From Synechococcus sp. (GTDB lineage: Bacteria > Cyanobacteriota > Cyanobacteriia > Thermostichales > PCC-7336), in the NCBI GenBank assembly GCA_051439605.1, contig JBFRWN010000096.1, positions 1-28,068 on the forward strand: DNA of 28,068 nt, in the 5' to 3' direction. The notes beneath the pieces are model-generated. The model made no database searches, was not told the origin of the DNA, and was given only the letters and a program-made list of their open reading frames with translations. A program made the position numbers and the translations under genes. How positions within the stretch are numbered: the first letter of the stretch is position 1; the number at the start of each line of letters is the position of its first letter. Positions 20,117 through 28,068 of the stretch are shown here, one piece after another.

Positions 20117-23100
20117 TTACCAGGGAAGCCGACCGGTGTAGGAATTACCGTGCCGCTCCCGATCGCGTTCCAGTCGCAATCGCAACATGCTGTAGACCTC
20201 TCGGGCGAGGGTATCCAGATAGGCACTCAACTGCTCGGGATTGTCGGTCTCCTGTGGACTTGCTTGCAGTGTTTCGTCCCAATCGGAGCCGGGAGAAGAA
20301 CTGCTGGCGTTAGCTCCACTGTCTGTATCGAACGCAGCCTGGATGGTGGTTTCTGAAGTGGAGGAGCGATGGGAGATGGGAGATGGGAGCGGGGGAGCGA
20401 TCGCTGTTTCGGACATCAGTTTTGACAAACTGGACCGTTGCTCTGGCAAAGGCCTTGAAGATGGTTGGGGAGAACTCGATGTTTCGGACATCAGCTCTGC
20501 CAAACTGGACCATTGTTCAGGCAAAGCGCTTGAAGGTGACTGGGAGGCTCGCTGGATGGAAGAGCTGGTGGGTTTTGCACCCTTGCTCTGTCTCAAGCCC
20601 GAATTTTTTGCCAGATCGCCGAGACTATTCACCGGAGTTGGGAGTGGTAAAGACGTGCTGACTGGGAGGGCATCCACGTTCGAGGGTTGGGTTTGCGTAT
20701 CCGAGCGATGCGAGCTGGTGACTTGTGGGGTAATCGAAGGCTGAATGAGAGGCTGCAGTACGTTGAGAGTTTGCAAAACGCGGGGGAGTTGAGGGATTAT
20801 CGGTTGCTGCCCGATAGGATGCTGTGTTTGTAACTCTGCTGGTTCTTGGAAGGGGTCATTCGTATTAGCAGCTGCAGGTCGCTCTTCGGACTTTGTTGGA
20901 GCGGGTTCAACCGGAATTAGGGTCTGAGAATAAGGCTCGGTAGCAGTTTTTCTTTGGATGGCTGCTGTTCTAGAGATGTTCGGTGGGACAGGACTTGGGG
21001 GACGAGCAGAAATGTTAGCTGAGTTGGCTTCGGGCGATTGAGGGGATTGGCGCTGAATAGGAGATGACGCGATCGCCGATTCCTGACTTGGTTGTGACTT
21101 TGGAACAAGTTGCCCGATCTTGCCGCGATTTGCAGGGTTACTGTTCGGCTGCTGTTGAAGGCGCTTGGGAGGATCGACGTTAGACTCCAAAGCTGTATGA
21201 GACGGATCGGACGGGCTGACCGGTGTCGGTTGCCCATTATCCGACGATGCATTCACGGTTGGAGGACCCGATTGCTGCCTGTTGTTCTCCTGGATTTGCG
21301 AGGACGGATTGGCAGGCTGACTGGGCGATCTGCCCGGTAATGCTCGATCTGGCGCAGATACGGTGTCAGGTTGAATCGTTGAGGGGGAAGAGAGTGCTGC
21401 TATGGGAGTTTGCGACAATTCGACCGACGTTACAGGATGCTCCTCTGCCTTTTGTTGCAGTGGAAACGGAGTTTGCGAAGATGAGTGCTCTGTCGAGTTT
21501 CCCGAGCGATCGCGAGTTTGCCGTTGATTTGTTTCGCCTGCAACGGGATTGGAGCTGGAGGATTCTTGCTGGGAGGCTGGTGCTGGAGGGTGTGAGGCAG
21601 CTGCTGAAGAATCAGTCCGATTGCTGCCAGGTGACGTTTGGATCGGTTCGTTTAGCTGAGGACGTTGTTGTGTATTCGCTTCACCTGCAAGCTGACGTTG
21701 GAGTGAATGCGATTCAGATGAAGGGATGGTATTGCTCTCTTCCCGACTAACTGCACGATCGCCAGTTGGAGCCGGAGGAGTTTCAGTACCGGTCAGTTCC
21801 GATTTTGCGAGTTTCTCTGAATTGTCCTGTCTTAAGATCTGCGGTTCTGGCCGACTCTCGGGGTTGCGATCGATGGGGGGCGATGAAGGTGTGTCTGCAA
21901 ATGGAGGGGGTTGGATCGCAGGGCTCCCTGAGTCGCTTTTCAGTCCAGGATGAATGGTGGAACCTGCCGGTAAGTTCTGACTTGTCGTTTCTGTGGGATT
22001 GACAGCATCTGGGCTGCTCGGTGGGCTTGAAGATAATGTTTTGAGTTCCCCACTGGATTGGACGGCGGCAGTGTCAGATGGAGGCTCGGACGTCTCGAAC
22101 GCAGCAGCAGGAGCTGCCTCCGGCTGAGATTGAGGCGCGTTGGGGTCGGCAAGACCAGCAGCGGAGGATATTCCCGATGGAGTTCGCTGGACTGGATTGG
22201 GGGATGGATCGCTAGCGATGCCGGAACCGCTCCGATCGCTATCCAGAACCTCTACCCCTGGCGATTGCACGGTGTCTGCAGCGGGGGATTTGTAGCTGCT
22301 GTCCGTAGATTGCGCCTCTGCTCTCTCTGTCTTTGCACCAGTTGCTCTTGCAGAAGTCTCTTCTGGCGAACGATCGACTGTCGAGTTAGAGGGGGTTTGA
22401 ATAGCAGAGGCTTGGGGGCGATCGGTACTGGCTGCATCTAATGAGGGGTCTGCTGCAGAGGGGGTCGAAATCGTTTGACCGCTGGAACTCTTTCTATCTG
22501 AAGTTGGATTGGTTGCGAGGTTTTCCGCGTGAGAGTGTTGTGCGTTCTCCTGGGGCCCGGCTGTTGCTGGGTCGTCCATCCGAGCGGTTGGCTTAAGTTG
22601 GGGAACGGTCGTTTCAGAGCGAACAGTCTGAATTGCTTGTTCTGTGATCGCTCCATGGCTAGGGAGGATAGTTGATGGCGATGAGGTCTCAGCGGGAGCA
22701 GCGAGGTCGCTACCGTTTACCGAAGCCGGAAGGAATGTTGATTCTGCTGACAAGCCGGAAGCTTGGATATCAGGAGCTGGCGGGGTAGGGGCAGGCGTAA
22801 ACGAAGCTCTCTCTGGTTCTGGTGATTGACTGGATTCCTCGCCAGTAACGGATATTTCAGAGGGAGGGGTATGGGCGTCGGTGGAACTAGCAGTCGCGGG
22901 AATCGAAGAAGACTGCGATCGCTCGTTGTTGTGAGAAGTCCCAGACCAGACTGGCTGTGATTGCGAAGAAGAGTCTGAGTACCCATCCATATCGACTCTG
23001 GGAGTCATCTCTCGGGATGCTTCGGAGGCAGGTTTGGCTTGGATGGCAAGAGGCGGTGCATCGCTTCCTAGTTCTGGATCGCTTGCGGGATCTGAAGATG

Positions 23101-26041
23101 ACCTTGTCGGTAACGCCTGACCGGTCGTTGGTTCAGGAGTAAGACTGTCCGGACTATCCGATGGGTTTTCAGGGGAGTTCACTAACTCTTTTTCGGGCGA
23201 TCGCAGTAGTTCGTAAGAAGGAGCTGAAGAGGGCACTGGCGGATTGCTGACTTTAGGGGGCTCCTTAGGTTGAGAGTGTGCTGAAGGGGATTCGGTAACG
23301 ACAGGAGGATCGGACTTCGTTGATGGCGATCGCTGAACTTGGGTTGAGGGTGGCTCGGCAGCGATAGGAGGGGTAGATTTCGTTGATGGCGATCGCTGAA
23401 CGGAGAGGAATGCTGGATTGCGGGTACTGGTGGTATCGGTGCGGTCGCTGTCCTGTGCCTGCGAATCGTAAGACTGAAAAGTCTCCTGTGCTGGAGCGTC
23501 CAAGGACCAGCCATCGGGTTGCTCCGAAGCTCGCTTGGTACGTTTGCCTGCTTCTGTCGCGGGGGTATTCGCTGGCGATCGGTTCTCAGTTGAGTCTGTA
23601 GCTACTTGAACAACAGGGACATGGGTCGGCTCGGTACCGCTGATGTCCGAGGGTGGTTTTGCGGTTGGCTGTGACGCGATCGCCTGTTCGCTCGAACTTC
23701 TACGATCTGGATCCGAACTCTCTGAAGGGGAGGGCGCTTGTGGTTGGCTTACTCGTGAGGGTGGGCTGGCAGGTGTTGCGCTACTCGGTTGAATTGGGGT
23801 GTCTGCTTGAGAAGCTATCGCGCCTGAGTGTTGAGGCTGAATGGCTTGCTCTGCTTCTGAATTCAACGGCGCGTGAATTCCAGAGGTATGACGATGGGGA
23901 TTGTTGATACTTTCAGCTGAGTGGGAAAGTATGGATTGCGATTGCTCGCCACCAGTCGAGTTCCCCGATGAAAAAGGCTGCGATGGGGAAAATGCGGGGC
24001 CGGTCTGTCGCGGTGGGTCTGTCGCATTGTCTTGACGTTGAGTGACTAGTGACGGCTCAATACCTTCGTTTAGTCGATCTCTGGAGGACTGAGATGAATT
24101 TGGGGCTGTGCTCGCAGACTCGACAGGCGACTCGTTAGATATATTCTGCGAGGGAGTGGACGTTACGGAAGGCGTTGGTTGACGCTGAATATTGGGTGAT
24201 TCTGGGGCTGAGTTTTCGACGTCATTCCTGTTTGAAGGGCTTGTTGTTGGTAAAGACTGAGGTGACGGCAAGCCATCACTGCATGTCTGAGTCGGATGGA
24301 TGATTATATCTTGAGGGAGAGGAGAAGGTACTGGATTCTGCTCTACACCATTCATTCTTGGAGAGGTCTGCAGTCTCGATCCGGGGGCATCTGGCTGTGG
24401 TAAAGCCATCAATGCAGGATTGGCGGACTCATTGGTTTGGCTGGTTGGAGCTGACTGAGTTGCATCAGTCCGCGAGAGAGAGGGTTGGTTAGGGTCAATT
24501 TGTCTCTGAACCTGCGGTAGAGAGGTGGGGCGATCGCCCGGCTGAGTCTGACCTTCTATAGATGACTCAATTACTGGGTCGTTAGTCTCGCCGCTATTTC
24601 GGAGCTCTACAGCATTGATTTCTGAAGAGGTTTGCAGCTGTATCCCCGATGTATTTTGCTTTGGCGAAGCAATCGATGCCGCATTGGCAGACTCATTGAT
24701 TTGGCTTCCTTGAGAGGTTTGTTGAGTGGGTTCAGGGTTGGCTTCGCTGGTGCGATCGCTTGGTGTTTGCGGTGAGGGAGTTTGTGGGTGGGGAGCGGAC
24801 GTTGTGGGAGGCGTTCGTCGATTTTGAATATTGCCCGTTGTCACAGTAGAGCTTTCGCTGTTATCTGCTGGAATGCGGGCAATCGGTATAGATCCAGAAT
24901 TTTTAGCTGGCAGTGAACTTTGGGAGGGGGGACGTAACCCCTGTTCAGAGGTCAACGTTGACTGAGTTGCACCACTCTGCGAGAGAGACGGTTGATTGGG
25001 GTCAGTTCGTTTCTGCATCTGCGCGGGAGAGGAGGCGCGATTGCCCGATTGAACCTGTTTTTGTTTCGGTTGCTCAATTACAGGGGGATCGGTCTCGCGG
25101 ATAGGGGATGCGAGCGGAGCTGATGAAGACGCTTGGGATGCGCTAGAGCTAGGGTTAGAAGTCCTTTGACTAGGGTTTTCTATTGAAGGGGGAGTGGGGG
25201 GAGGACTCGGATCGGACTTGGGTTGGATTGCTGCATCGGCAGACTGGGTGGTACCTGCACGATCGCTTGGAGCCTGGGTGACAGGAATAGAAGATGGGCT
25301 CGAATTGGTTGGCTGATTGCTGGAGACTTGTTGCCCATCGTCAGAGGGGTTAACTGTAGGCGATCGCGAGCCTTGCGAGGGATGAAAGGAATGTGACGGC
25401 GATTCGGAGTTTGAAGTAGCTGGAGACAGCGAAGTAGATTCTAAAGATCTCTGATCGGCCAGATTTTCTTCACTTCCACTGGTTACAGGTCTGACCTCGC
25501 TGACAGAGGCATTTTGGGGTTCGTCAGATATTGAGGTCTGTGGCTTGGCTTGTGGTGATGGTACGGAAGAAGTTGCTTGGGGGCTGATATCGCGCTGGGT
25601 TGAAGGAGAAGGCTCTCCAGATTTCCGAGCGGTCTGTCTAGAAATTTGTTCCCCGCTTCCCGCAGGGCTAGAGGGGGGAGAAACAGTCTGCCGAGTAGTC
25701 GACGACGTGAGTAGAGATCGATCGCCACCTAGTGCCGCTTGTGTCCCATCAACTATTGCCGAAGGATTCGCCGTTCCTTCTGGCGGCAGTTGACTCGCTG
25801 GGAAAGCCCGATCGGAGAGGAGTTGTAGAACCGAAGTACTTGAAAAATTATCCTGCTGTAGACTGCTTGTCGATAGCGGAGCGAGGACGCCGAGGGAGCG
25901 GGTTCCCAGTCGAAATGCCGGCGACGATCCCTGTCTGCCTAAAGGGGGAGGAGGCAACAAGGGACTGTGAAGTCCTAGAGGGGTAGCGGTTTCCTCTAGT
26001 GGGGGGTGAGGGGAATGACGATCGGAGGGGTGAGAGGCCAT
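20117..26041 (-). CDS. Very large Ser/Pro/Gln/Thr-rich disordered CIS-associated protein with helical C-terminal motif
   Basis: 1974 open codons, starting 3 nt after the tube gene stop. Low complexity, recurring (I/V)QR motifs, C-terminus LDTLAREVYSMLRLRLERDRERHG. Confidence 0.8.
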   Translation of the reverse strand: MASHPSDRHSPHPPLEETATPLGLHSPLLPPPPLGRQGSSPAFRLGTRSLGVLAPLSTSSLQQDNFSSTSVLQLLSDRAFPASQLPPEGTANPSAIVDGTQAALGGDRSLLTSSTTRQTVSPPSSPAGSGEQISRQTARKSGEPSPSTQRDISPQATSSVPSPQAKPQTSISDEPQNASVSEVRPVTSGSEENLADQRSLESTSLSPATSNSESPSHSFHPSQGSRSPTVNPSDDGQQVSSNQPTNSSPSSIPVTQAPSDRAGTTQSADAAIQPKSDPSPPPTPPSIENPSQRTSNPSSSASQASSSAPLASPIRETDPPVIEQPKQKQVQSGNRASSPAQMQKRTDPNQPSLSQSGATQSTLTSEQGLRPPSQSSLPAKNSGSIPIARIPADNSESSTVTTGNIQNRRTPPTTSAPHPQTPSPQTPSDRTSEANPEPTQQTSQGSQINESANAASIASPKQNTSGIQLQTSSEINAVELRNSGETNDPVIESSIEGQTQPGDRPTSLPQVQRQIDPNQPSLSRTDATQSAPTSQTNESANPALMALPQPDAPGSRLQTSPRMNGVEQNPVPSPLPQDIIIHPTQTCSDGLPSPQSLPTTSPSNRNDVENSAPESPNIQRQPTPSVTSTPSQNISNESPVESASTAPNSSQSSRDRLNEGIEPSLVTQRQDNATDPPRQTGPAFSPSQPFSSGNSTGGEQSQSILSHSAESINNPHRHTSGIHAPLNSEAEQAIQPQHSGAIASQADTPIQPSSATPASPPSRVSQPQAPSPSESSDPDRRSSSEQAIASQPTAKPPSDISGTEPTHVPVVQVATDSTENRSPANTPATEAGKRTKRASEQPDGWSLDAPAQETFQSYDSQAQDSDRTDTTSTRNPAFLSVQRSPSTKSTPPIAAEPPSTQVQRSPSTKSDPPVVTESPSAHSQPKEPPKVSNPPVPSSAPSYELLRSPEKELVNSPENPSDSPDSLTPEPTTGQALPTRSSSDPASDPELGSDAPPLAIQAKPASEASREMTPRVDMDGYSDSSSQSQPVWSGTSHNNERSQSSSIPATASSTDAHTPPSEISVTGEESSQSPEPERASFTPAPTPPAPDIQASGLSAESTFLPASVNGSDLAAPAETSSPSTILPSHGAITEQAIQTVRSETTVPQLKPTARMDDPATAGPQENAQHSHAENLATNPTSDRKSSSGQTISTPSAADPSLDAASTDRPQASAIQTPSNSTVDRSPEETSARATGAKTERAEAQSTDSSYKSPAADTVQSPGVEVLDSDRSGSGIASDPSPNPVQRTPSGISSAAGLADPNAPQSQPEAAPAAAFETSEPPSDTAAVQSSGELKTLSSSPPSSPDAVNPTETTSQNLPAGSTIHPGLKSDSGSPAIQPPPFADTPSSPPIDRNPESRPEPQILRQDNSEKLAKSELTGTETPPAPTGDRAVSREESNTIPSSESHSLQRQLAGEANTQQRPQLNEPIQTSPGSNRTDSSAAASHPPAPASQQESSSSNPVAGETNQRQTRDRSGNSTEHSSSQTPFPLQQKAEEHPVTSVELSQTPIAALSSPSTIQPDTVSAPDRALPGRSPSQPANPSSQIQENNRQQSGPPTVNASSDNGQPTPVSPSDPSHTALESNVDPPKRLQQQPNSNPANRGKIGQLVPKSQPSQESAIASSPIQRQSPQSPEANSANISARPPSPVPPNISRTAAIQRKTATEPYSQTLIPVEPAPTKSEERPAAANTNDPFQEPAELQTQHPIGQQPIIPQLPRVLQTLNVLQPLIQPSITPQVTSSHRSDTQTQPSNVDALPVSTSLPLPTPVNSLGDLAKNSGLRQSKGAKPTSSSIQRASQSPSSALPEQWSSLAELMSETSSSPQPSSRPLPEQRSSLSKLMSETAIAPPLPSPISHRSSTSETTIQAAFDTDSGANASSSSPGSDWDETLQASPQETDNPEQLSAYLDTLAREVYSMLRLRLERDRERHGNSYTGRLPW
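20405..20535. repeat. Imperfect in-frame duplication, 75-nt period
   Basis: TGTTTCGGACATCAG…CAAACTGGACC…GGCAAAG…CTTGAAG at 20405-20460 and 20480-20535, encoding LPEQWSSLAELMSET / LPEQRSSLSKLMSET. Confidence 0.9.
23316..23401. repeat. In-frame duplication, 63-nt period, each copy containing HIP1
   Basis: Exact TTCGTTGATGGCGATCGCTGAAC at 23316-23338 and 23379-23401, encoding VQRSPSTK twice. Confidence 0.9.
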
Positions 26042-26044
26042 TGC

Positions 26045-26581
26045 TTAGTTGCTGGAGAAATATCCAGAGGGGCCGCGACGGTCAAGGTAGAGGGCGCCGC
26101 CGCTACCGTTGCGATTGCTCCCGGTGGCTATTTTTAATCCTTCGTAGGCGATCGTGAGCTCCTCTACAGCAACGTTGTTGGAATCTGCACTAAAGCTGGG
26201 TCCTTGCCAGCCGACGGGGACGGCACCGATCAGAGTCCAGCACTGCATCGTTTCCCCCGCCTGGTTGAACAGCAAGATATTGATGTTTCTTCGCAGGTCT
26301 TTCAGTCGGTTGTTGGCCCGCCGTACTTCCAGCATTTTGCCGATCCATTCCAAAAAGACCAGATCGTCGGTGATGCCTCGCTTGAGGGTGACGTCAGAGA
26401 AATCCGTTTGGCCGAGTATCAATCGCTGTTGGTCGTTGACTCCGCCCTCCTTTTGCTTGTCGCATTTCACCTGAAATCCCAAGCCGGAGCATTCTGTAAA
26501 CGCTGCCGTAATCCGGCTTTCGATTTCTACGTAGAAGCGGTTGGTGGTGACGTAGTTCAGTTGCGGGCTATCATCTGCCAT
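26045..26581 (-). CDS. Phage T4 gp19-type tail tube protein (Afp1/Afp5-like, likely Afp5/Cis5)
   Basis: RFYVEI…AFTECSGL, EGGVND, DVTLKRGIT, WTLIGAVPVGWQGPSFSADSNNVAVEELTIAYEG. Confidence 0.93.
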   Translation of the reverse strand: MADDSPQLNYVTTNRFYVEIESRITAAFTECSGLGFQVKCDKQKEGGVNDQQRLILGQTDFSDVTLKRGITDDLVFLEWIGKMLEVRRANNRLKDLRRNINILLFNQAGETMQCWTLIGAVPVGWQGPSFSADSNNVAVEELTIAYEGLKIATGSNRNGSGGALYLDRRGPSGYFSSN

Positions 26582-26807
26582 TTCGACTTCTCCCGCATCC
26601 GCGCTGCCGTTCCTGTTGGCGATGCAGGTCGTCTTGCATCAACCGATAGACGCGATCGCTCAATTGCTGTAGCGCTAGCGGATCGTCCAAAATTTTTTCG
26701 GCCAATCTTCCGAGTCCCTTTAGGTCGGCTGGACTGAGGGCTTCAAAGTCAACTCCAAACGCAGACCCGGTCAGGTCGTTGTTGATAGAGGAATGAGACG
26801 ATGGCAT
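26571..26807 (-). CDS. Small CIS-associated helical protein
   Basis: Overlaps the tube gene start by 11 nt. Contains LAEKILDDPLALQQLSDRVYRLMQDDLHRQQER. The start is ATG 26807 (GGAG upstream) or 26882. Confidence 0.7.
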   Translation of the reverse strand: MPSSHSSINNDLTGSAFGVDFEALSPADLKGLGRLAEKILDDPLALQQLSDRVYRLMQDDLHRQQERQRGCGRSRNGR

Positions 26808-27175
26808 TCCATTCAGCTCCGTTCGCTGTTCGCCCGCAAGTCGCCCGACTATCGCAAAGGCAATAGTCATAAAAAGCGGCATTTATACCCTATACATCAG
26901 GGGTCGGCATGCCTAGTAGCTGAAGGTCGAGGTGTAGGAAATCTGTAAGAGAGGGTCTCAGATTCAGAGGATGTTGAGACTCAGTGCGACTGTTTTGATG
27001 CTGAAAGGCTTGCCTGTTGCTTTTCCACTTTGATTCAAGAGGTAGGTATCGATATTGTTTGGCGATCGCTTAGATATCTTTGCTTCTGTCGATGCGATGT
27101 TTCTTTGGGTTTGAATTTCGGGCGCGTTCGAGTGACTATTTGGGATGTTAATGCCTCGTAACAACTGGGTTCGAT

Positions 27176-27378
27176 TCCGCCTAATTGCCTGTTTGGGGAT
27201 GTTAGGCGGATAAAGCCTCAGATACGGACCGAAGATACACAGGAAGTTTCCGCATAATACCCATTGAAAGGGTATTATGCGGAAAACTTGTCCTACTAAA
27301 CTTCATTTTTGAGGTGTTAGGCGGAAAGTTTCCGCCTAATCGCCCGATTGAAGGGTGTTATGCGGAATGAGTCCGTAT
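27176..27378. repeat. Array of four palindromic units TCCGCMTAA-N17/18-TTAKGCGGA
   Basis: Units at 27176-27210, 27249-27283, 27291-27325 (degenerate left arm) and 27331-27366. Unit 2 sits in a perfect 16-bp inverted repeat (27247-27262/27270-27285). ATACGGAC (27222-27229) pairs with GTCCGTAT (27371-27378). Confidence 0.9.
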
Positions 27379-27422
27379 ATTTAATAGTCTGCCACTGAAT
27401 TCACAAATCGCTGGGGGCTGTA

Positions 27423-27920
27423 GTGAGTGAGAAGAAGTCATTCTTTCAAACATTGCCGGGGATACTAACCGGTCTGGCTGCGTTGCTGAGTGCAGTGACG
27501 GGCTTGTACCTTGCTTTCAGAAGAGATGATCGACCAATCTATAGCCCGAGCTCTCCTACTGAGACTCCTATAGCAGCTCAGCCGCAGCCAACAGAATCTA
27601 ACTTTGCTGAGGTGATGCGTGGCATCTGGAAGAACGAAGACTCCAATACCCGGGGCGTGACTAAGATTGTAATCCTAAGGAAGAGCGGAGAAACATTTGT
27701 TCAAGCTTGGGGCAAGTGCCATCCTCAGGACTGTGATTGGGGTGAAGCCAAGGCCACAATCGAGGGGGATATTCTCAAGGTTACGTGGTACTGGGCTGGC
27801 GGAGAGCGTGATATGTCTCTCCGTTTGGTAGGAGATCGCCTACAAACAGAAACTATCCACGTTTACAACGACGACCGACCGCCACGCCGATCTTCATACT
27901 GGTTCGTAAGAGGGTCTTAA
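27423..27920 (+). CDS. Membrane-anchored hypothetical protein, cassette-like
   Basis: N-terminal TM (FFQTLPGILTGLAALLSAVTGLYL), Pro-rich linker, beta-rich domain with WGKCHPQDCDWG. GTG start. Confidence 0.8.
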   Translation: MSEKKSFFQTLPGILTGLAALLSAVTGLYLAFRRDDRPIYSPSSPTETPIAAQPQPTESNFAEVMRGIWKNEDSNTRGVTKIVILRKSGETFVQAWGKCHPQDCDWGEAKATIEGDILKVTWYWAGGERDMSLRLVGDRLQTETIHVYNDDRPPRRSSYWFVRGS

Positions 27921-27947
27921 TGATGCAATGTTGAAGATAGTCACCTA

Positions 27948-28068
27948 ATCGGGATAGGGAGAATCCTCACGAATCCCCCCTCCCACACCACCTGGCATGC
28001 GGGTCCGCACCAGGCGGTTCAGCATCACGGAGCAAACATTAATTTGACACCATCAAACGTATCCCTGG
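27948..28068 (-). mobile_element. 3' end (domains V-VI) of a group II intron, IIC-type, running off the window edge
   Basis: Minus strand reads GAACCGCCTGGTGCGGACCCGCATGCCAGGTGGTGT (DV with CGC triad), then GGGAGGGGGGATTC-GTGA-GGATTCTCCCT-A-TCCC (DVI with GNRA loop and bulged A), ending in AT at 27949-27948. Confidence 0.92.

Follow-up and report, generated by a model that had tools for sequence, protein, structure and literature searches.

In class 1 integrons, the recombination site attI1 separates the integrase gene intI from the first cassette. It terminates in two 7-bp cores in inverted orientation, where crossing over takes place at G/TTRRRY (a slash marks a crossover or an intron junction throughout), and has extra core-like boxes upstream, namely the accessory direct repeats DR1 (GTTACGC) and DR2 (GTTATGG), within ~65 bp (PMC3146285). 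Most environmental attI sites have no accessory repeats, according to the same article. The partner sites, canonical attC sites or 59-base elements, have RYYYAAC-like and GTTRRRY-like cores and fold into hairpins. Group II introns of the IIC-attC type target the bottom strand of attC, where they insert into the R'' box against the direction of the cassettes; their consensus target is TTGT/T (IBS1/IBS3), and they also occur in integrase-less arrays (PMC7923331, PMC3001079). The proteins of such introns form one monophyletic clade, and the RNAs have a class C structure with a small domain I and without EBS2. Clusters of attC sites that have no integron integrase (CALINs) and other degraded chromosomal integrons have cassettes and sites without an adjoining integrase, probably after loss of intI, in the account of Cury et al. 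2016 (PMC4889954). Here, we compare with these systems a locus at the right end of contig JBFRWN010000096.1 from the cyanobacterium Synechococcus sp. (assembly GCA_051439605.1), where a multi-hairpin element is followed by a single open reading frame (ORF) and an antisense group II intron. The whole contig of 28,068 nucleotides (C96) is referred to below as the window.

We consider it likely that the window ends, on its right, in a decayed chromosomal integron platform, made up of an attI-type region, one cassette, and an attC site split by an IIC-attC-type intron. From left to right, the platform would hold at most a ~19-codon relic of intI, the attI-type region, one cassette with a gene for a protein of 165 amino acids (aa), and the start of an attC site with the intron. 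The attI-type region would consist of four phased units of ~41 bp, in each of which two 10-bp boxes resembling integrase cores (TTCCGCCTAA and TTAGGCGGAA) are inverted with respect to each other, and then of a simple site that ends in ATAG/T. The intron would have reverse-spliced on the bottom strand into the R'' box ACCTA/, antisense to the gene. In intact relatives, binding of the integrase IntI to the boxes and to the simple site would be followed by recombination of the double-stranded attI, at G/TT, with the folded bottom strand of an incoming attC. Such arrays share with attI1 the place between intI and the first cassette, the inverted core pair at the end, and the core-like boxes upstream of it. 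They differ from attI1 in the number of accessory boxes (six to eight rather than two), in the length of these boxes (10 bp, as in TTCCGCCTAA), in their arrangement (three to four phased ~41-bp inverted-repeat units over 130 to 220 bp rather than direct repeats), and in a design that is kept across many cyanobacterial genera.

The original prediction, which was made from the sequence of the window, described a palindrome array, a single ORF, and an antisense group II intron, all of which are present. Inverted repeats on TCCGCMTAA/TTAKGCGGA lie between positions 27174 and 27378, after CGTAACAA at 27157-27164, and their arms contain the core-like GCCTAAT, GTTAGGC, and GTTATGC, as had been noted. 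The 251 nucleotides at 27150-27400 fold at -102.7 kcal/mol, compared to -64.5 +/- 4.9 kcal/mol for shuffled sequences (z = -7.74; 0 of 200 shuffles as low), with inverted-repeat arms TCCGCCTAA/TTAGGCGGA at 27176-27210, a 19-nt pair at 27247-27285, and TTAGGCGGAAA/TTTCCGCCTAA at 27317-27339. The region 27173-27370 holds four ~41-nt inverted-repeat units in tandem on the plus strand. In each unit, a 10-nt arm of the TTCNNCCTAA type and its inverted counterpart enclose ~20 nt that contain a CCC...GGG inner stem; the stem measures 10 bp and the inner stem 3 bp, and the window's own units have no bulged bases. Unit 1 (TTCCGCCTAA ... TTAGGCGGA; 27173-27214, 43.9 bits) is separated by a spacer (27215-27244) from unit 2 (TTTCCGCATAA ... 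TTATGCGGAAA; 27245-27287, 42.6 bits), which forms the most stable hairpin. Unit 3 (27288-27327, 34.8 bits) has a degenerate 5' arm, and unit 4 (TTTCCGCCTAA ... TTATGCGGAA; 27328-27370, 45.5 bits) is the top match in the genome. The TCCGCMTAA motif has 30 matches in the assembly, 7 of them clustered at 27176-27366 and the other 23 singletons; the multi-hairpin element is not a dispersed repeat. On the hairpins, an Rfam search at E <= 1 returned only chance matches to microRNA models, and ARAGORN found no tRNA, despite the T-arm-like GGTTCGATTCC in unit 1. The start of this unit (GGGTTCGATTCCGCC; 27168-27183) resembles the T-arm of a tRNA, a likeness that we ascribe to chance because ARAGORN finds no tRNA and homologous units elsewhere lack it.

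In 37 nonredundant units (3 odd rows of 40 were dropped, and the alignment had been fitted to the model), the two arms of a unit pair at 7.59 of 10 positions, compared to 7.25 positions for shuffled partners; 10 of 2000 shuffles score as high as the real pairs. Without the seed rows, the respective values are 7.39 and 7.09 (46 of 2000 shuffles), and in 11 of the 37 units one arm position has a C-T mismatch. This comparison hints, weakly at best, at selection for hairpin pairing. Because the arms are mostly conserved sequence with little covariation, we take the hairpins to result mainly from inverted candidate protein-binding boxes on double-stranded DNA, although the units may also fold. Adjacent boxes make palindromes of 21 to 23 bp, which would also suit a dimeric DNA-binding protein. 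The units might then be operators, bound by a transcription factor or by IntI in the role of a repressor, at divergent promoters of intI and the cassettes, with the terminal simple site alone serving as attI. The within-unit pairing barely above that of shuffled arms would fit operators, as would the overlap of the arrays with the region just upstream of intI, where another contig of this genome (C88) has a TATAAT between the last box and intI. We think this account unlikely, however, since the boxes share a TTAGG/CCTAA core with the R boxes of attC and with the simple site, and since arrays persist where intI, and hence the promoter to be controlled, is gone. Moreover, a crude consensus scan of window positions 26800-28068 gave no promoter (including none of the sigma-70-like kind) and no terminator.

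Homologs of the element point to its role. On C88, three tandem units of the window's design lie between the start of intI and the first ORF on the opposite side. A covariance model (R1) built from these three units and the four of the window matches arrays outside the seed on contig C31 of the same genome (3159-3282), on contigs C172 and C98 of the sister species G001, on contig C122 of G003, several times in a genome of another family (G045), and at 4.25, 4.58, 3.07, 0.47, and 2.23 Mb of a complete genome of the same genus (G002). Three of the arrays found in this way abut N-terminal intI fragments. Window positions 27160-27387 align end to end with four arrays of G002 and one of G001, in the order unit 1, ~30-nt spacer, units 2 to 4, and terminus GAGTCCGTCTATTAAATAG; unit 1 of the window aligns with unit 1 of these arrays, and the spacer is conserved in them.

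In a sample of the class, units are found at E <= 1e-4 in 47 of 151 genomes (35 of 80 genera), and the integron-integrase model TIGR02249 has matches at E <= 1e-15 in 84 of the 151. In at least 13 genomes (12 in the sample, as well as G001), units are 27 to 189 nt away from the 5' end of an intI gene or gene fragment; this number of genomes is a lower bound obtained by comparing the two match tables by eye (G000, G001, G002, G045, G062, G068, G086, G088, G131, G133, G142, G147, and G170). We also searched, without filters, 20 further full-length intI loci, which were hand-picked from the top of the match list, leaving out loci already counted and those at contig starts. At nine of them, a unit scores E < 0.01; the 43 matches at E <= 1 are all located in the 600 nt upstream of the gene, with none in its ~940-nt coding part. 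In the complete integrons of G068, G133, G142, and G170, the array leads straight into the first cassette. By the location of its homologs, the multi-unit element is placed in the attI position, between intI and the first cassette. In G170 (contig C8, locus L065, reverse strand 274-627 and 2212-2538), one small cassette occurs twice in one array, with ORFs of 117 and 108 aa that have the same start.

These distributions bear on two other views of the element. Its units are palindromic, in tandem, of alternating orientation, and present at several places per genome, and the array could thus be a selfish small repeat, such as a miniature inverted-repeat transposable element or a repetitive extragenic palindrome or bacterial interspersed mosaic element, that lies near intI by chance. 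This we judge extremely unlikely. There are 3 to 6 array loci per genome rather than hundreds; in the genomes with adjacency, less than 200 nt separates the arrays from the 5' end of intI, always on that side, for which chance would give ~0.01 events by a rough estimate; all matches at the 20 intI loci are upstream of the gene; and we saw neither target-site duplications nor terminal repeats next to the arrays.

The second view is that of the original prediction, in which the ~250-nt element is a noncanonical attC-like site that bounds cassettes in place of a single-stem attC. The core-like sequences in its arms and its location directly upstream of a cassette-like ORF speak for it, and like attC its units can fold into hairpins. 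Yet the element is homologous to arrays in the attI position. A platform has one such array, which flanks the first cassette on the side of intI, and none lies between cassettes; the cassettes of G002 are separated by ordinary, single-hairpin attC sites of 84 to 91 nt. At only ~41 nt, without an L box, in tandem, and confined to the head of an array, the units differ from these sites. The prediction further expected more TCCGCMTAA hairpins past the intron, and the assembly holds no second cluster of the motif. We therefore consider an attC-like role of the element very unlikely. That the locus belongs among integrons at all was correctly anticipated, and the genome does encode integron integrases.

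The end of the array agrees with an attI-type region. The simple site GAGTCCGTATATTTAATAG/TCTGCC (27369-27393, plus strand) has its junction after G27387, and its core, GTCTGCC, agrees with GTTRRRY in 4 of the 7 bases. Fourteen loci, the window included, end in ...CTAWT-N-ATAG/; the next bases are TT in 13 of them, mostly as part of a TTRRRY core, and TC in the window. Over the 20 nt that precede the junction, the mean ungapped pairwise identity among the 14 loci is 0.55; it is 0.62 over the first 6 nt past the junction and 0.27 over nucleotides 7 to 26. Similarity thus breaks off just past the junction. The position of the element and the break in similarity at G/TT are how an attI would be expected to behave, with a simple site preceded by candidate accessory core-like boxes. 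We infer both the binding of IntI to these boxes and the past capture of a cassette at the site in the window.

Integrase genes were identified with TIGR02249 (cutoff, 265 bits). The assembly has matches on C88 (4341-5282, 451.8 bits) and C7 (4-771, 371.8 bits) and a fragment on C61; the window has none, and hence no intI adjoins its array as in a complete integron. The intI gene of C88 has an in-frame TAA near codon 31, and a downstream start would give a 292-aa protein without the N terminus. The C7 gene is cut by the contig start. In the window, a tblastn search with the IntI protein of C88 gave a weak candidate for a relic of intI at 27097-27153 on the minus strand (~19 codons with two stops; 8 of 19 identities to residues 4 to 22, E = 1.9), at the place and on the strand where intact loci have the start of intI. 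The intI remnants beside arrays range from full length through profile positions 1-163, 1-139, 1-129, 1-99, and 1-91 to ~19 codons and none. The simplest reading of this graded series is that integrons which were once complete have eroded and that the window has come close to the last stage. [quoted passage not shown]

A different explanation for the integrase-less arrays, including that of the window, is that they are working secondary docking sites served in trans by the integrase of C7 or C88. Three of the four arrays of this genome (C96, C98, and C31) have no intI and are each followed by a cassette-like gene. In G002, likewise, the arrays at 4.58, 0.47, and 2.23 Mb have no recognizable intI, the one at 3.07 Mb retains only a few intI codons, and toxin-antitoxin-like and other accessory genes follow the arrays at 4.25 Mb, where an intI fragment is kept, and at 4.58 Mb. 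In addition, the intI gene of C7 has no stop codon in its assembled part. We nonetheless find service in trans doubtful: the crossover core of the window is degenerate, the graded decay of intI fits the erosion of complete integrons, and the sequence from the array to the ORF is at least 99% identical in contigs of four metagenome runs, and therefore no turnover is visible.

The cassette-like segment, defined by its position between the attI-type junction and the insertion point of the intron in the R'' box, extends over 27388-27948 on the plus strand. Its ORF (27423-27920, plus strand), the sole one between the array and the intron, is where the original prediction of a mobile cassette would place it, and encodes the 165-aa protein with an N-terminal hydrophobic segment. 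The protein matches no Pfam family and has no named neighbor in the protein Atlas; its full-length relatives, at 49 to 84% identity, are all metagenomic. It was not found in the two other members of the genus that were searched, and it has matches in 12 of 300 other genomes of the class, most of them covering less than half of the protein. Such a patchy distribution would be expected of an accessory gene. The end of contig C98 is a second copy of the window's layout, with a degenerate array, the simple site TTCCGTCTAAGTAAATAG/TTGGTA, one ORF of 427 aa (no Pfam match), and then GGCATA/intron.

In the window, the left part of the R'' box (CACCTA/; 27943-27948, plus strand) is followed by the last 120 nt of a group II intron (domains V and VI; 27949-28068, minus strand), which is antisense to the ORF and cut by the contig end. 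The Rfam family RF00029 (group II domains V and VI) matches 27948-28019 on the minus strand with 41.9 bits (gathering score, 40), and an A is bulged 7 nt before the ...GAT 3' end of the intron, in keeping with a group II intron, which has a catalytic domain V and a branch-site domain VI. The intron end ...CCCGAT lies at 27949, and its 3' exon is TAGGTGAC (CACCTA on the plus strand, 27943-27948). This is the junction given in the original prediction, although its distance from the stop codon is 28 nt rather than 27. Contig C98 ends with the same 120 nt of intron and 3 shared exon bases. Since the contig end falls 120 nt into the intron, the intron body and the 5' exon are not in the window, and the interior of the intron is in no contig of this assembly.

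Related copies of the intron are present in G002. One of them (locus L021) is ~1.94 kb long, matches the Rfam models for domains I to IV RF02001 (133 bits) and RF01998 (58.9 bits), and ends in ...CCCGAT/T. It presumably resembles the class C intron of Oceanobacillus. It encodes a frameshifted protein with RVT_1 and GIIM domains and no Pfam match to a nuclease domain, which in a pairwise comparison is 53% identical to the ltrA product of an intron that lies antisense in a class 1 integron array (plasmid NZ_CP031121). The G002 intron is ~11 kb from intI, antisense to a row of plus-strand ORFs, and splits an attC exactly at R'': intact sites begin with ACCTAAC and read ACCTAAC-CAC-TCGCTGC..., and the interrupted one reads ...AAA/intron/CACTCGCTGC..., cut at the same place as in the window. 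In G002, a frameshifted intI at 927-928 kb is followed by cassettes with canonical attC sites between them. Among these, at 933.2-936.0 kb of contig C1 (L034 and L035), are at least five near-identical cassettes of ~105 nt without ORFs, each with a GCGATCGC site, alternating with near-identical attC sites.

Using the G002 copy as a probe, we found four intron 5' junctions at contig ends of the window's own genome (C104, C111, C77, and C132). All four 5' exons are long, bulged, attC-like hairpins, whose cassette-strand ends are GTTAGCC (C104), GTTAGCC (C111), GTTAGAC (C77), and GTTATGC (C132). The 3' exon of C98 and the 5' exon of C132 together rebuild GCATAAC...GT/TATGC, with 6 of 7 R-box positions paired, and folding favors C132 as the partner of C98. 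The reconstituted attC sites in this genome measure 58 to 96 nt. The intron thus shares with IIC-attC introns the insertion into R'' of the attC bottom strand, antisense to the cassettes (as seen in the G002 comparison, in the rebuilt C98-C132 site, and in the orientation within the window), as well as a T as the first base of the 3' exon, a small size, and a protein with reverse transcriptase and maturase domains. It differs in its cyanobacterial host and in its 5' exon ends. These comparisons support the view that the intron of the window behaves like an IIC-attC intron in the R'' box. The predicted IIC-attC geometry holds for the antisense orientation and the R''-type box and fails for the TTGT target; the plus-strand ACAA that was expected to complete ACCTA/ is replaced by AAGG (twice), AATG, and ACGC at the four 5' junctions.

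In run X1, the likely source metagenome, the unitig with the intron end has a depth of 318, compared to 32.5 for the flank, and the intron is therefore multicopy, whether within this organism or in the community as a whole. In runs X1 to X5, the same end is joined to several further 3' exons, and the intron is abundant in the sediment community and not in this genome alone. Further matches to group II domains V and VI on C86 (2557-2634, 49.6 bits) and C13 (30317-30404, 45.5 bits) appear to belong to unrelated introns, because a BLAST search with the 3' end of the window's intron missed them. In G002, a 3' fragment of the same intron family lies at 2588.7-2592.7 kb of C1 (L017), next to an IS21-type pair (a 533-aa transposase and a 262-aa helper); split intI fragments lie ~14 kb away, at 2574.0-2575.1 kb, and the area may be another degraded integron region.

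The general prediction of sites and further unrelated ORFs past the intron is borne out on the candidate contigs. Past the attC remainder, C77 has three more R'-ending sites within 2.7 kb, followed by urease and other core genes, and C111 has two more attC-like sites with clear hairpins, followed by pyrC; on both, unrelated ORFs have attC sites of their own, and counted by their R' ends the further sites number 3 to 4 on each. C104 and C132 continue with ORFs only. The expected ACAA and TCCGCMTAA hairpins are absent. Contigs of four runs over 26800-28068 include none that joins across the intron site or bridges to the next contig. A finder that demands strict R''/R' complementarity reported no attC on C88, C7, C104, C111, or C132, and a looser one reported 2 sites in G002, where ~ten are seen by eye; given this shortfall, the finder is too insensitive for a census. 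An alignment of nine G002 attC sites with MAFFT gave a useless RNAalifold consensus of 8 pairs (-0.22 kcal/mol).

Several observations weigh against a decayed integron platform in the window. The crossover core there is not GTTRRRY, the match to a relic of intI is suggestive only and not significant, and just the first 5 to 6 nt of an attC are in the window. C104, the best-folding partner of C96, pairs at 5 of 7 R-box positions, which is weak and not decisive. The intron junctions GCGT/T, CCTT/T (twice), CATT/T, and AGTG/T (the last in G002) depart from the published TTGT/T, only the T after the cut being constant. Eleven of the 20 hand-picked intI loci show no unit at E < 0.01, G051, G053, G095, and G102 have units and no intI match at E <= 1e-15, and many arrays have no intI nearby. 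The position of the locus is not conserved either, because in the sister species G001, which keeps the neighboring phage-tail-like genes, similarity ends at window position ~26673 and no array follows. Finally, the boxes are putative IntI sites, judged by their likeness to GTTRRRY/RYYYAAC cores and by their position. On balance, we still favor the decayed platform. The missing intI, the degenerate crossover core, and the splitting of the attC by a ~1.9-kb intron argue against current activity, and the cassette is probably frozen in place. The window is most likely a fossil one-cassette platform.

The setting of the locus is as follows. The assembly comprises 4.9 Mb in 143 contigs (51% G+C), of which the shortest are at least 3 kb, and the window is all of contig C96. 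On the right, the assembly breaks off within the intron, whose 5' exon lies outside. The sequence GCGATCGC, which we take to be the cyanobacterial HIP1 repeat, has 4208 copies in the assembly. To the left of the array, a phage-tail-like gene set on the minus strand (20117-26882) may be part of a contractile injection system. It includes a tail tube protein of the T4 gp19 type (26045-26581, minus strand; Pfam PF06841, 131.8 bits), for which G001 carries an 89%-identical gene, and a protein of 1974 aa in which Ser, Pro, Thr, and Gln are abundant and domains are not obvious. A 103-aa ORF upstream of the tube gene, also on the minus strand, belongs to the set as well.

The components of the locus are known kinds of element, and the basic picture of integrons is unchanged by it; the multi-unit architecture of attI and the frequency of integrase-less copies appear to be new. 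Among the papers listed, our literature search found no description of a multi-unit cyanobacterial attI, and none in the collection searched that names cyanobacterial integrons, which shows only that none was found. The locus extends attC-targeting group II introns to cyanobacterial integrons and shows how their insertion can lock a cassette. Sites of the attI type are known for only a few integron classes, and the authors of IntegronFinder note that the attI sequence is unknown for most integrons and hence not searchable (PMC4889954). A phylum-wide attI that can be searched with a model would allow integron platforms to be annotated where intI has decayed, would separate true array heads from CALINs, and would provide a defined substrate for the effect of accessory integrase-binding sites on cassette capture. 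We can also imagine, with considerable doubt, a cyanobacterial integron lineage with a large phased attI nucleoprotein platform (three to four ~41-bp units, six to eight boxes, and a simple site), whose scattered intI-less copies dock cassettes in trans through a single integrase; in a bolder version, the units would extrude as hairpins and attI would be recognized in a folded form, like attC. If the platforms do work in trans, the integron of these cyanobacteria would be a multi-site system and not a single locus.

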